Below are positions 52 to 3,985 of a stretch of DNA of 4,112 nucleotides, one piece after another. The DNA comes from a virus. Lineage: Duplodnaviria; Heunggongvirae; Uroviricota; Caudoviricetes. Location: the IMG/VR virus record IMGVR_UViG_2695420478_000009; one strand, 5' to 3'. Within the stretch, counting starts at the first letter, position 1. Each line of letters begins with the position of its first letter. The position numbers were made by a program, and so were the translations under genes. The notes below the pieces were generated by a model. The model made no database searches, was not told where the DNA came from, and saw nothing but the letters and a program-made list of their open reading frames with translations.

Positions 52-181
52 GCAAATGTTAACTGCTGCCTGGTTAACATTTGCTGAAAAAGCCAGTTAA
101 CATTTTTTTCGCACAACAAACTGAATAATAAAGATAAAAACCGCAAAAATGCCCGGGCAGCCAGTTAACATGTTAACTGGC
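52..181. promoter_or_regulatory. Array of five GTTAAC-core half-sites (consensus about GCCAGTTAACAT) including a perfect 22-bp palindrome at 160-181; candidate terminase small-subunit (cosB-like) or dimeric regulator binding sites
   Basis: GTTAAC cores at 58, 73, 96, 164 and 172. There is a 12-bp inverted repeat at 52-63 / 73-84, and GCCAGTTAACATGTTAACTGGC at 160-181 is its own reverse complement. Confidence 0.5.
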
Positions 182-204
182 CTGAAACAGGAATTTTTTC
201 TCTG

Positions 205-271
205 CATGAGACGGGGGGCGGTGTCCGGAGCGATCGTTTTTCACGCCGGATGATACCCCCCCCCGCTCGGG
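205..271. other. GC-rich quasi-symmetric element with a C9 homopolymer, immediately 3' of the HNH gene; candidate cos (cosN-like) site
   Basis: GAGACGGGGGGCGGTGTCCGG...CGTTTTT...C9 resembles the lambda cosN region (ACG GGGCGGCGACCT CGCGGGTTTTCGC) as I remember it. HNH genes typically sit directly beside cos in HK97-like phages. Confidence 0.3.
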
Positions 272-637
272 TTACAGTCCGATGATGTCGTCCGCTCTGC
301 CACTACCTCCGGACACCTCCGGCAGCGTCGGGTCCGGCATACCACCCGCCGCTTCACGAGCAGACTTTTGTCGATGGCATTCGGTACAGAGCGTCCAGAG
401 ATTCGTCTCCTCATTACCACCACCGAACTGAAGTGCAATTCGGTGATCGAGTTCACTGTCACAGAGGTCAACCACACGACCACAGAGACAGCACTGCCCG
501 GCATCCCTGAGCCAGATATGACGCTTGAGGGAAACACGTGCACTGCCACTGACACGACGCTGTTCACCCTTCAGAATATTCACCCGTCGGGTATTCAGTG
601 TTTTGATTCTGCTCTGGAGTGTACGAAGCTCAGCCAT
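272..637 (-). CDS. Phage HNH endonuclease, 121 aa (copy 1)
   Basis: The provided ORF contains the motif CCLCGRVVDLCDSELDHRIALQFGGGNEETNLWTLCTECHRQK (Cys pairs plus H..N..H, a zinc-finger HNH fold). A GGGGA Shine-Dalgarno-like sequence lies about 6 nt upstream of the ATG. Confidence 0.85.
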   Translation of the reverse strand: MAELRTLQSRIKTLNTRRVNILKGEQRRVSGSARVSLKRHIWLRDAGQCCLCGRVVDLCDSELDHRIALQFGGGNEETNLWTLCTECHRQKSAREAAGGMPDPTLPEVSGGSGRADDIIGL

Positions 638-725: not shown

Positions 726-873
726 AGCGGCAATGGCTGACGCTGTTTTGTTTTTCCCGGACATGAGCGCCAGCGCAAATTTTCGTTTTTGCGTTGTCAG
801 CACAGCCTCCTCCCGGGTCCATAACGCACTCAGCCGGGTATGGTTCAGCCCATTTTTCCCGGCGTCTCATGCC

Positions 874-1026: not shown

Positions 1027-1095
1027 CATGAGACGGGGGGCGGTGTCCGGGGCGATCGTTTTTTTCGCCGGATGATCCCCCCCCCCCGGGGCGGG
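1027..1095. other. Second, sequence-diverged copy of the GC-rich cos-like element (C11 homopolymer at 1077-1087)
   Basis: Homologous to 205-271 but carries several substitutions and a 2-nt longer C-run. Confidence 0.3.
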
Positions 1096-1461
1096 TCACA
1101 GTCCGATGATATCGTCTGCCCTGCCATGACCTCCGGACACCTCCGGCAGCGTCGGGTCCGGCATACCACTCGCCGTTTCACTGACTGACTTCTGGCGATG
1201 GCATTCGGTACAGAGCGTCCAGAGATTCGTCTCCTCATTACCACCACCGAACTGAAGTGCAATGCGGTGATCGAGTTCACTGTCACAGAGGTCAACCACA
1301 CGACCACAGAGACAGCACTGCCCGGCATCCCTGAGCCAGATATGACGCTTGAGGGAAACACGTGCACTGCCACTGACACGACGCTGTTCCCCCTTCAGAA
1401 TATTCACCCGTCGGGTGTTCAGAGTTTTGATTCTGCTCTGGAGTGTACGAAGCTCAGCCAT
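1096..1461 (-). CDS. Phage HNH endonuclease, 121 aa (copy 2, variant C-terminal tail)
   Basis: The first 92 residues are identical to copy 1 and the nucleotide differences there are all synonymous. The C-terminal 29 residues carry 5 replacements. Confidence 0.85.
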   Translation of the reverse strand: MAELRTLQSRIKTLNTRRVNILKGEQRRVSGSARVSLKRHIWLRDAGQCCLCGRVVDLCDSELDHRIALQFGGGNEETNLWTLCTECHRQKSVSETASGMPDPTLPEVSGGHGRADDIIGL

Positions 1462-1502: not shown

Positions 1503-1688
1503 ATGTCATCGAAAAACCGTACCCGCAGAACCACAACCCGCAATATCCGTTTCCCCAATCACATGATTGAACAGATCAACATCGCCCTTGAGCATAAAGG
1601 GTCCAGTAACTTTTCAGCGTGGGTTATTGAAGCCTGCAGAAGAAGGCTGTCAACAGAGAGTTCGGGTATGAATTACATAATTAAGTAA
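1503..1688 (+). CDS. Small DUF3950-like protein, 61 aa (YlcI/YnfO-like, possible ribbon-helix-helix DNA binder)
   Basis: Strong SD (AAGGA) 8 nt upstream of ATG 1503. The protein MSSKNRTRRTTTRNIRFPNHMIEQINIALEHKGSSNFSAWVIEACRRRL matches my recollection of YlcI/YnfO from DLP12/Qin. It is divergent from the HNH gene with a 41-bp gap. Confidence 0.65.
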   Translation: MSSKNRTRRTTTRNIRFPNHMIEQINIALEHKGSSNFSAWVIEACRRRLSTESSGMNYIIK

Positions 1689-2311: not shown

Positions 2312-2779
2312 TTATTTCAGGCACTGAGTGCGGATATAGTCCTGTGCCCCTTCCAGTTGCTTCTGCATTGTCATCAACCGCTCTCTGAGGGTGAAATAAT
2401 CCCGTTCAGCGGTGTCTGCCAGTCGGGGGCCGGTTGCATTATCCATTCCGGAGGTGCCGGTGGCTTCACGCACGGTACCGGAGCAGGTGGCGTTGATCCG
2501 CAGGCGCTTACGACCAGCGGCAACATCAGCACGCAGAGTTTCATTTTCAGCTCTCGCATCGGCTAATTCCCTCGAGTATTTTGCATCGAGCGCAGCAACA
2601 TCGCGCTGGCGCACCTGCATATCAGTAATGGTTGCATTTGCCAGCTCCAGCTCACTGACTTTTTTATCGCGCTGCTCTTTGTAGGTTATGGCGTTATCAC
2701 GGTAATGATTCAGCCCCAGACTAAGCGCACCACAGGCCACCAGCAGGGCAATGATGACCACGCACAGTACGCGGTTCAT
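2312..2779 (-). CDS. Rz: Rz i-spanin, 155 aa
   Basis: The protein from MNRVLCVVIIALLVACG... has an N-terminal TM segment followed by NHYRDNAITYK...DVAALDAKY...RLADTAERDYFTLRERL.TMQKQLEG, closely matching lambda Rz. Start taken at ATG 2779 because the track's 2803 start is a TTG. Confidence 0.9.
   Translation of the reverse strand: MNRVLCVVIIALLVACGALSLGLNHYRDNAITYKEQRDKKVSELELANATITDMQVRQRDVAALDAKYSRELADARAENETLRADVAAGRKRLRINATCSGTVREATGTSGMDNATGPRLADTAERDYFTLRERLMTMQKQLEGAQDYIRTQCLK
2374..2559 (-). CDS. Rz1: Rz1 o-spanin lipoprotein, embedded in the +1 frame of Rz
   Basis: MRELKMKLCVLMLPLVVSACGSTPP...CVKPPAPPEWIMQPAPDWQTPLNGIISPSESG has a lipobox (VSAC) and a proline-rich body, matching lambda Rz1. 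Confidence 0.85.
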   Translation of the reverse strand: MRELKMKLCVLMLPLVVSACGSTPPAPVPCVKPPAPPEWIMQPAPDWQTPLNGIISPSESG

Positions 2780-2780
2780 T

Positions 2781-2882
2781 TCACCACCAGCGTATCTGAC
2801 CAATGAAATAACCGGAAGCCATAATCACAAACACCAGCCAGATAAGGATGAACTTCCAGGTGGATAATTTTTCAGCCATCAT
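2781..2882 (-). CDS. Candidate 33-aa single-pass membrane protein (MMAEKLSTWKFILIWLVFVIMASGYFIGQIRWW) between the endolysin and Rz
   Basis: GGGAG SD 6 nt upstream of ATG 2882. Its TGA stop lies 1 nt before the Rz ATG (TGAAATG). The longer 72-aa version in the track starts at a GTG inside the terminator hairpin. Confidence 0.35.
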   Translation of the reverse strand: MMAEKLSTWKFILIWLVFVIMASGYFIGQIRWW

Positions 2883-3076: not shown

Positions 3077-3610
3077 TTATCTGTCAATTCCCCAGCACGC
3101 CAGCGCGCTCTCCTGGTCACGACGGGATACCTGACCGTAACAGTTGTTTGAACGAATACGGCAGTCTCTGCCACCGTCCTTAATCCACCAGCGAATCGCT
3201 TCGCAGGCACCTTTTCGATCACCTGCATTAATTCGTCTGTAAAACGTAGACGGGAAACACTTACCGGGACCAATGTTGTACGGACAGAATGACGCAATAC
3301 CCGCTTTCTGGGGTTCGGTCAGTGGCACTCTGATGTTTTTCGCCACCCATGCCAGCGCCTTATCACGTTCAATGGCGTTAACCTGGTCGCATTTTTCCTT
3401 CGACAACTTCATGCCCGGGAGGACAGGCTTACCATCCACCCGGGTGGCTCCACGGCAGATGGTCCAGATACCCGCACCATCACGGTATGCCGTGGTGTGG
3501 TTACCTTCCTTTTCATCCAGAAACTGGTCGAGGATTTCAGGCGCAGGCGCACCTGCGGCAATCAGCGCCAGAACGGCAGCCGACAGGCCGTATTTGATTT
3601 TGGTGTTCAT
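3077..3610 (-). CDS. SAR endolysin, 177 aa (T4-lysozyme-like muramidase, RrrQ-type)
   Basis: Gly/Ala-rich N-terminal signal-anchor (YGLSAAVLALIAAGAPAP) followed by a catalytic triad with E-x8-D-x5-T spacing (EGNHTTAYRDGAGIWT). The 177-aa length and sequence match my recollection of the Qin lysozyme. Confidence 0.9.
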   Translation of the reverse strand: MNTKIKYGLSAAVLALIAAGAPAPEILDQFLDEKEGNHTTAYRDGAGIWTICRGATRVDGKPVLPGMKLSKEKCDQVNAIERDKALAWVAKNIRVPLTEPQKAGIASFCPYNIGPGKCFPSTFYRRINAGDRKGACEAIRWWIKDGGRDCRIRSNNCYGQVSRRDQESALACWGIDR

Positions 3611-3652: not shown

Positions 3653-3985
3653 TTAAGTCTTCAGAGAACCAGTAATTATTCCCGGTAGTTTTCCTCTGTA
3701 GATTATCAACACATCCTGCGCCTCTAAAATGATGGGCCGCTTTTCCGGCAACGGACCATCCCCTTCACATAACCCGGCAGCAACATCCATGAAAAACTGC
3801 TTCGCCTGCTTTTTCGCCTCAGCTTCGTAAAACTCCAGCGTGGCACCTTCAGTACGGTCAAGACTAATCGCCACATCTGGCAACAACAGTGACGGATACC
3901 CACCAATTTCCAGTGCCACAGTAACAGTAATCTTATCCGGGTAATTATTTATCCCTTTAACAACCAGTTCGTATTTTTTCTTCAT
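3653..3985 (-). CDS. ydfR: YdfR-like DUF1327 protein, 110 aa, unknown function, sitting between holin and endolysin
   Basis: The ATG lies 4 nt after the holin stop with a GGGAGAG SD. The protein has no TM segment or signal peptide. The holin-ydfR-lysozyme order matches the Qin prophage as I recall it. Confidence 0.7.
   Translation of the reverse strand: MKKKYELVVKGINNYPDKITVTVALEIGGYPSLLLPDVAISLDRTEGATLEFYEAEAKKQAKQFFMDVAAGLCEGDGPLPEKRPIILEAQDVLIIYRGKLPGIITGSLKT

Follow-up and report, generated by a model that had tools for sequence, protein, structure and literature searches.

The stop codon of an HNH endonuclease gene in a stretch of 4,112 nucleotides of viral DNA (the window) is followed by a long poly-C tract and a GC-rich element, which raises the question of whether the phage genome is cut for packaging at this element, to what type such a site would belong and what part the homopolymer plays. 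The original prediction had read the element as resembling the lambda cosN neighbourhood, beside a tract that could be a slippage hotspot or simply error-prone sequence. We find that the element is a real cos site, rightly placed by that prediction but given the wrong type.

The window covers the late region of a lambdoid E. coli prophage, with genes on the minus strand, and contains the following genes and gene fragments:

3653-3985, minus strand: YdfR-family ORF
3077-3610, minus strand: lysozyme gene
2312-2803, minus strand: Rz gene
1503-1688, plus strand: short DUF3950/YnfO gene
1096-1461, minus strand: HNH endonuclease gene copy 2 (121 aa; Pfam PF01844)
728-803, minus strand: 5' fragment of terS (GTG at 803-801, about 25 codons), truncated by the duplication junction 727|728
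272-637, minus strand: HNH endonuclease gene copy 1 (121 aa; Pfam PF01844, E 7.5e-7)

The HNH genes are paired through a direct repeat of 822-824 bp in which 1-727 matches 823-1551 with 96% identity. The duplicated unit is terS'-cos-HNH, and each copy has its own HNH gene, a gap (the non-coding 1-271 in copy 1) and an intact cos. The two HNH copies differ chiefly at residues 95-111, and their stop codons lie at 272-274 (copy 1) and 1096-1098 (copy 2). An intact terS should start outside the window, roughly 20 bp left of position 1. We found the 822-bp tandem duplication with two intact cos sites in no relative, all of which are single-copy, and it is the sole unusual feature of the window.

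The letters of the element are as first described: ACGGGGGGCGGTGTCCGG occupies 211-228, CGTTTTT lies at 235-241 and runs into CACG in copy 1 but TTCG in copy 2, and the poly-C tract is C9 at 256-264 and C11 at 1077-1087, with GCTCGGG flanking the first and GGGGCGGG the second. Its closeness to the HNH stop also holds, as the GC-rich core starts 52 bp past the stop codon and both copies of the element lie just past an HNH stop.

In relatives, the gene carries the annotation "HNH endonuclease". These relatives include the Stx phages BP-4795 and phage 2851 as well as E. coli prophages: of 5,426 complete genomes of the species, about 1,460 have homologues of this HNH-cos region, frequently several each. 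The gene order in the relatives is lysis genes, ynfO, HNH, a 290-bp gap, terS, terL and capsid genes, with the HNH-gap-terS-terL order annotated in BP-4795, in one E. coli chromosome and in the Stx1 phage Lys8385Vzw. A Pfam search placed TerS in PF03592. The BP-4795 terL, directly downstream of the homologous terS, matches PF03354 (E 2e-11) and PF20441 (E 5e-10), and it is from BP-4795 that the TerL class is read, the window's own terL and head genes lying outside the window. The element thus sits between terS and the HNH gene that closes the late operon, which is the HK97-type placement.

A tblastn search with the HNH protein identified Lys8385Vzw (MT225100), induced from E. coli O103:H11 strain RM8385, whose HNH protein is 99.2% identical to copy 1. 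The physical ends of this phage have been reported, in a one-sentence statement, as PhageTerm class cos with 3' cohesive ends and with the cos sequence CGCCCCCCCT at the genome end (PMC7946995; Zhang et al. 2021). Its record ends ...GGACACCGCCCCCCCT and restarts CTCACGCAGAG (in a longer read, it ends ...CGATCGCTCCGGACACCGCCCCCCCT and starts CTCACGCAGAGAAAAAATTCCC), a break that is homologous to window 210|211. With the homologue of the Lys8385Vzw cos at 211-220, the motif singled out in the original prediction starts exactly at the cohesive end: the mapped 10-nt end begins at the first base of that motif, 211, bearing out the suggestion that cos lies here as it does in HK97-like phages. Termini mapping elsewhere, or headful packaging, had been named as the outcomes that would overturn the suggestion, and the ends of this near-identical phage agree with cos instead. 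We count the cos site as known, because it has already been mapped in Lys8385Vzw.

On the strand that runs toward terS, the poly-C of the window is a poly-G, the local form of a G-rich box (G-box) found 31-35 bp before the cohesive end. Read along the minus strand, the order is HNH stop, CCCGAGC, G9, TATCATCCGGCGTGAAAAACGATCGCTCC, GGACAC, CGCCCCCCGT and CTCATGCAGAGAAAAAATTCC, and the parts of the element are as follows:

256-264, minus strand: G-box copy 1, G9, ending 35 nt before the cohesive end
227-255, minus strand: spacer from the G-box to GGACAC, TATCATCCGGCGTGAAAAACGATCGCTCC, which starts with (A)TCA and contains TCCGG...CCGGA dyad elements
221-226, minus strand: GGACAC block (GTGTCC on the plus strand), directly 5' of the cohesive end, with conserved GAC(AC)
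211-220, minus strand: cohesive end copy 1, 5'-CGCCCCCCGT-3' (ACGGGGGGCG on the plus strand), matching CGCCCCCCCT of Lys8385Vzw at 9/10 positions, with identical flanks
210/211 on the minus strand and 220/221 on the plus strand (CG|GT): predicted nicks of copy 1, which would leave a 10-nt 3' overhang
190-210, minus strand: CTCATGCAGAGAAAAAATTCC, bases +1 to +21 of the virion left end, of which +12 to +17 are an A6 tract
1077-1087, minus strand: G-box copy 2, G11, with the same allele and flanks in another locus (L027)
1033-1042, minus strand: cohesive end copy 2, with the same sequence as copy 1

Judged from sequence, 190-264, and again 1012-1087, is very probably an HK97-type, HNH-assisted cos of a BP-4795/Lys8385Vzw-like lambdoid E. 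coli prophage, working by the mechanism that we propose below. The assignment rests on the mapped ends of the near-identical Lys8385Vzw rather than on those of this prophage's own virions, and a cos site does not by itself make a functional prophage, as defective prophages can retain cos.

Aligning the element to the cos sites of HNH-associated phages, a check that the original prediction had proposed, revealed a layout shared with HK97, phiP27, SfV, D3, fLi-Aba02 and Lys8385Vzw. In HK97, phiP27, SfV/SfI and D3 it runs from a G-box through TCA, some 25 nt and GAC(AC) to a C-rich 10-mer. The G-rich box, its distance to the overhang, the block before the cut and the cohesive end are, in each phage:

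HK97: box G9, 32 nt to the overhang, GAC, CGCCGCCAAA, a 10-nt 3' overhang (PMC11331095, PMC9410871)
phiP27: box GGGGAGGGGCGGG, 31 nt, GAC, CGCCCGCCCC, with the cos site annotated in the record
SfV/SfI: box GGGGAGGGGCGGG, 31 nt, GAC, TGCCCGCCCC, a 10-nt gap from end sequencing (PMC3636060)
Pseudomonas D3: box GGGGTGGGGCGGG, 34 nt, GGACAC, CGCGCCCCCA, the last 10 nt, read from the right end of the record only
Acinetobacter fLi-Aba02: box G6, 35 nt, GGACAC, CGCCCCCCAT, from PhageTerm and a heat/anneal gel (PMC7354433)
Lys8385Vzw: box G7, 34 nt, GGACAC, CGCCCCCCCT, from PhageTerm (PMC7946995)

Window copy 1, with 35 nt from box to overhang, fits this layout, and further boxes are present in sal3 (GGGGAGGGGCGGG) and Salmonella FSL SP-016 (G8). 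The cohesive end is C-rich on the terS-directed strand in all six listed phages. GGACAC occupies the same place in Lys8385Vzw, fLi-Aba02, D3 and FSL SP-016, with GAC there in HK97, SfV and phiP27, and the nick register of the window is that of HK97, phiP27, D3 and fLi-Aba02. In the lactococcal phage sk1, a C8 run lies some 40 nt from the right end; we do not count this phage as support because its gene order differs.

We condensed the layout into a structured pattern (G4, N0-4, TCA, N20-32, GAC, N0-2, YGCC[CG]) built from HK97, SfV, phiP27 and fLi-Aba02 only, which is our own operational criterion rather than a published definition. The pattern matches the window exactly twice, at 216-261 and 1038-1083 on the minus strand, compared to 0.0045 matches expected per dinucleotide-shuffled window. 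A scan of species-representative genomes with the 14-nt core GGACACCGCCCCCC served as a negative control only, its matches being mostly chance ones in GC-rich genomes; none of the 120 mostly chance matches listed carried the structured pattern. An nhmmer profile of HK97, SfV, phiP27, sal3 and fLi-Aba02 found its best window match in the correct place (1086-1035, minus strand) at a non-significant E value of 0.77, so that it is architecture, not overall sequence similarity, that ties the site to HK97, phiP27 and D3. In FSL SP-016, where the gap between HNH and terS is only 106 bp, the whole block from G-box to A-tract is kept and is homologous to window 164-263 with 78% identity. As just this block is kept, we consider it the constrained core of the site.

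Literature searches with the 10-mers returned unrelated matches only (e.g. a 16S primer and human promoters). A search of IMG/VR with a one-sided pattern for virome contigs that end at the cut found none; all 37 matches were prophage regions of isolate genomes and hence supply no physical ends.

Past the cut, the first 21 nt of the virion left end are conserved in Lys8385Vzw (CTCACGCAGAGAAAAAATTCC), in FSL SP-016 and in Acinetobacter fLi-Aba02 (CGCACGCACAAAAAAAATTCC). Between the cut and terS, AGTTAACAT motifs form an array in each copy of the repeat:

56-178: array copy 1, with motifs at 56-64 (minus), 72-80 (plus), 95-103 (plus), 163-171 (plus) and 170-178 (minus)
878-1000: array copy 2, with motifs at 878-886, 894-902, 917-925, 985-993 and 992-1000

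The last two motifs of copy 1 form the palindrome CCAGTTAACATGTTAACTGG. The window contains 11 matches to AGTTAACAT compared to 0.8 expected, a count that none of 200 shuffles reached, and fLi-Aba02, which has a homologous TerS, carries three AAGTTAAA repeats at the same position. In HK97, the TerS binding site is an A-tract at +15 to +29 (PMC11331095); analogy with this site and with the R sites of lambda makes the window's A-tract and AGTTAACAT repeats a probable cosB-like TerS-binding region. No IHF consensus was found in the gap between HNH and terS.

For the cut itself, we propose that the concatemer would be nicked on the minus strand at 210/211 and on the plus strand at 220/221, giving 10-nt 3' ends of 5'-CGCCCCCCGT-3'. 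The HNH enzyme would probably make the plus-strand CG|GT nick and TerL the other, 10 nt away. The G-box, 31-35 bp inside the right end of virion DNA and thus on the last-packaged side of the cut, would position the nuclease machinery. TerS would probably bind on the other side of the cut, at the A-tract (+12 to +17) and at the five AGTTAACAT repeats that precede terS. The proposed split of the two nicks draws on the sequence at the plus-strand position, which falls within GGCG|GTGT; the matching nick is CG|GT in HK97, phiP27, D3 and fLi-Aba02, and CA|GT in SfV. Several cos-adjacent phage HNH enzymes are strand-specific nickases that cut at CG|GT or close variants of it (Xu and Gupta, PMC3592412). 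As the plus-strand nick lies in this HNH nickase motif, the HNH enzyme probably makes it. In HK97, the HNH protein gp74 stimulates cos cleavage by TerL (PMC9410871), and a 2024 paper on HK97 TerS raises a split of the strand cuts between TerL and gp74 as a possibility (PMC11331095). HK97 gp74 alone has been reported to be non-specific (PMC3592412), and assigning the CG|GT nick to HNH is therefore conjecture. Together, the G-box and the CG|GT motif amount to a concrete hypothesis for how TerL and HNH might share the work in HK97-type packaging.

The length of the G-box varies. Across 39 copies, drawn from 37 IMG/VR loci, locus L002 and the window's own two copies, we counted G7 in 9, G8 in 19, G9 in 8, G10 in 1 and G11 in 2; in 3 of the 39, the G-run is followed by TATCATTC in place of TATCATCC. 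Length varies even within one flank haplotype, and from these differences between same-flank copies it follows that the tract is mutationally labile, prone to sequencing error, or both. Two neighbouring homopolymers vary as well (an A run of 6-8 and the C run of the cohesive end, 5-7), and sequencing errors may account for some of the length differences among older draft assemblies. The 655 bp that end at the right terminus of Lys8385Vzw, with a G7 box, are 100% identical in RM8385 and at least 24 further complete genomes. An allele found unchanged in at least 25 complete genomes and an induced phage is not simply sequencing noise, and is inherited stably. The suggestion that the tract is slippage- or error-prone thus stands as far as its length varies from 7 to 11, but falls short as a full account given the constancy of G7.

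A single-stranded fold from the G-box through the cohesive end gives a long imperfect hairpin, with z of -2.8 in copy 1 and -1.3 in copy 2. The G-run and the C-run of the cohesive end are complementary, with arms of GGGGCGGG and CCCGCCCC in SfV and phiP27, a symmetry that may be a mere consequence of a G-box beside a C-rich end.

How the site should be read depends on what else could produce such an element. A lambda-type cosN, with a 12-nt 5' overhang made by a Nu1/gpA terminase, would explain why 216-227 matches GGGCGGCGACCT at 9/12 positions with a T-run after it, but the window holds 3 matches of 9/12 quality when 3.22 are expected, the terminase families are PF03592 and PF03354 rather than Nu1/gpA, and the ends of Lys8385Vzw are 3' cohesive and 10 nt long. 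The core also faces the other way relative to terS, being C-rich on the terS-directed strand. A site of this type is close to untenable here, and we rejected cosN homology on the chance-level match, the wrong orientation and the wrong enzyme type; the original prediction's lambda likeness erred in both terminase and overhang type. Its doubt about orientation was justified, because the site is not lambda-type, although what had seemed the opposite orientation is the normal one for HK97-type sites. Headful (pac) packaging, with the GC-rich element unrelated to it (e.g. a terminator or regulatory site downstream of HNH), can hardly be correct either: beyond the position just 3' of a gene we found nothing more in its favour, whereas Lys8385Vzw is classed as cos by PhageTerm, the combination of HNH with an HK97-type TerL module is characteristic of cos phages, the element has no Rfam match and terminator-like sites in 1-1700 number 0 compared to 1.7 expected. 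An intrinsic terminator was rejected separately, no GC-rich hairpin with a T-run being present on the minus strand in 1-1700. An HK97-type cos remains our reading of the element as a whole.

Within that HK97-type cos, the homopolymer admits readings of its own. The core could be real and the poly-C a functionless, slippage- or error-prone run between the HNH stop and cos, a reading that draws on lengths of 7-11 in the 39 copies and within a single flank haplotype, on the variable A and C runs nearby and on the many loci from older draft assemblies. Against it, phages of Escherichia, Shigella, Salmonella, Pseudomonas and Acinetobacter, which differ in TerS family and whose flanks are otherwise unalignable, have a G-rich box at the same 31-35 nt from the overhang, the pattern is absent from the 120 listed chance core matches and G7 is stable in at least 25 complete genomes; we regard a functionless tract as unlikely on balance. 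Alternatively, a G/C run of at least 9 bases that is length-polymorphic between lineages could be a phase-variable (contingency) homopolymer through which HNH or terS expression is switched. The tract, however, lies outside ORFs: the HNH stop codon is 8 nt upstream of it, and downstream come first the cos cut and then, at least 229 nt away, terS. The tract occupies no promoter spacer, our search for a promoter-like site spanning it found none, and one allele is the same in many genomes, all of which makes such a switch very improbable. The chances are roughly even, by analogy and given its cosQ-like placement, that the G-box is a recognition, positioning or termination subsite for TerL and/or the HNH nuclease, and the tolerance of 7 to 11 G would make sense if what counts is G-richness and not an exact length.

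A broader proposal is that the G-run works as a subsite in HK97-type cos sites generally, a counterpart of lambda cosQ that docks or stalls TerL/HNH when packaging terminates. We put this forward tentatively, as falling somewhat short of an even chance; if it is true, length differences among the natural alleles (G6-G11) might adjust packaging efficiency or the compatibility of co-resident prophages. The HK97 packaging papers that we examined make no mention of the G-box element. What goes beyond these papers is the breadth of G-box conservation and the agreement of the nick position with an HNH nicking motif.

With exact cos coordinates, the ends of the virion genome are defined for a very common STEC prophage family. 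Such coordinates aid annotation of Stx and other lambdoid prophages, and help to predict which defective prophages or satellites could be packaged by a neighbour's terminase.

Among known systems, Lys8385Vzw is the closest. It shares with the window GGACAC, CGCCCCCC(C/G)T, CTCA(C/T)GCAGAGAAAAAATTCC, the AGTTAACAT repeats and a distance of 228-229 nt to the terS start codon, and differs at one base of the 10-mer, which is C where the window has G, and in its G7 box compared to G9/G11. The phage and its host genome have one copy of the unit, whereas the window has two in tandem.

HK97 has the same placement of cos between the HNH gene and terS, the same TerL Pfam family and an A/T tract past the cut, together with a G9 box 32 nt before the overhang, GAC followed by a CGCC... 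overhang and a bottom-strand nick at CG|GT. The differences are the lack of significant overall similarity, two added bases (AC) after GAC in the window, the TerS family (PF03592 in the window; HK97 gp1 has no Pfam match) and the 49 bp from cut to terS, compared to a 290-bp gap with a five-motif array in the window.

The Acinetobacter phages fEg-Aba01/fLi-Aba02, with 3' cohesive ends of 5'-CGCCCCCCAT-3' (PMC7354433), have a nearly identical GGACAC|CGCCCCCC(A/G)T. In fLi-Aba02, we also find the G6 box 35 nt upstream, a left-end start of C.CA.GCA.A.AAAAAATTCC, AGTTAA-type repeats before terS, and TerS and HNH proteins with 30% (E 4e-16) and 34% identity. Its host genus is different, as are its three direct AAGTTAAA repeats in place of the window's five AGTTAACAT including a palindrome, its leader of 72 bp compared to 229 bp, and a 225-bp ORF between HNH and cos.

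Lambda cos (cosQ-cosN-cosB) follows the same logic, with a GC-rich nick core, an element on the right-end side (cosQ or the G-box) and a small-terminase repeat array (the cosB R sites or AGTTAACAT), but differs in its 12-nt 5' overhang, the absence of HNH, the Nu1/gpA enzyme and the opposite strand polarity of the G-rich core.

The window carries an ~822-bp tandem duplication and therefore has two intact, directly oriented cos sites with a spacing of 822 bp. The features of the duplication are as follows:

1-727 (copy 1) and 823-1551 (copy 2), duplicated unit: 5' end of the small terminase gene terS, leader, cos, the gene for the cos-adjacent HNH endonuclease, and 5' end of ynfO
56-178 and 878-1000, cos-terS gaps: five AGTTAACAT motifs in each

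The novel junction at 727|728 fuses codon 16 of ynfO to approximately codon 25 of terS, and imperfect microhomology is present there (AATATCC vs AATAACC). A search of 5,426 E. coli genomes gave 1,259 matching records, the top-ranking of which showed no contiguous junction, and it was absent from the 37 IMG/VR prophage loci compared. The duplication may instead be a misassembly.

The two units of the tandem duplication have different closest relatives, namely locus L038 for copy 1 (99.4%) and locus L037 for copy 2 and the right flank (99.2% and 99.96%, respectively), and this difference indicates that they derive from different prophage lineages. Nearly all differences between the copies fall within 229-372 vs 1051-1196, a stretch comprising the flanks of the G-box (the poly-C tract read on the minus strand) and the final ~27 HNH codons (protein residues 95-111), while the remainder is almost identical. 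This clustering suggests a mosaic recombination boundary within the 3' end of HNH.

The AGTTAACAT motif is enriched, with 11 matches in the window vs 0.8 expected, and the array includes a perfect palindrome, CCAGTTAACATGTTAACTGG, at 162-181. Acinetobacter phage fLi-Aba02, which encodes a homologous TerS, has three AAGTTAAA repeats at the equivalent place. The AGTTAACAT repeats are probably TerS binding sites.

In the lysis region, a 61-aa ORF (2374-2559, minus strand) is nested inside Rz (2312-2803, minus strand), in the usual place of the Rz1 o-spanin gene. Its N-terminus, MRELKMKLCVLMLPLVVSACGS, looks like a lipoprotein signal, and lambdoid lysis cassettes usually contain an embedded ORF of this kind.

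Outside the window, the poly-C tract of PPompW prophages contains ISEc20, an IS110-family element:

L051 (PPompW_132418, LC567822.1) 2850-4320, homologous to window ~259: ISEc20 insertion, ...GGATGATCCCCC|GTTACTTT...GGGGCACCCCCCC|GAAAGG

Past ISEc20, these prophages continue into tRNA genes and the Q gene, and thus lack the HNH and lysis genes. Lactococcus phage sk1, a cos phage with an HNH gene, has a C8 run ~40 nt from its right end, but this run and the G-box of the enterobacterial phages are on opposite strands.

The mapped overhang implies a bottom-strand nick within CG|GT (plus strand 219-222 and 1041-1044). Characterised HNH endonucleases encoded next to cos nick this motif (PMC3592412). 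Among related prophages (IMG/VR loci L010, L033, L042 and others), the C-run of the cohesive end varies, reading CCGCCCCCG, CCGCCCCCCG, CCGCCCCCCC or CCGCGCCCC(C/G). Part of this variation may be sequencing error; if it is real, co-resident prophages would differ in overhang length or sequence. The last of these variants is similar to the end of D3, and the ends of HK97, phiP27, D3 and fLi-Aba02 all have CG|GT at the nick, as does the window.
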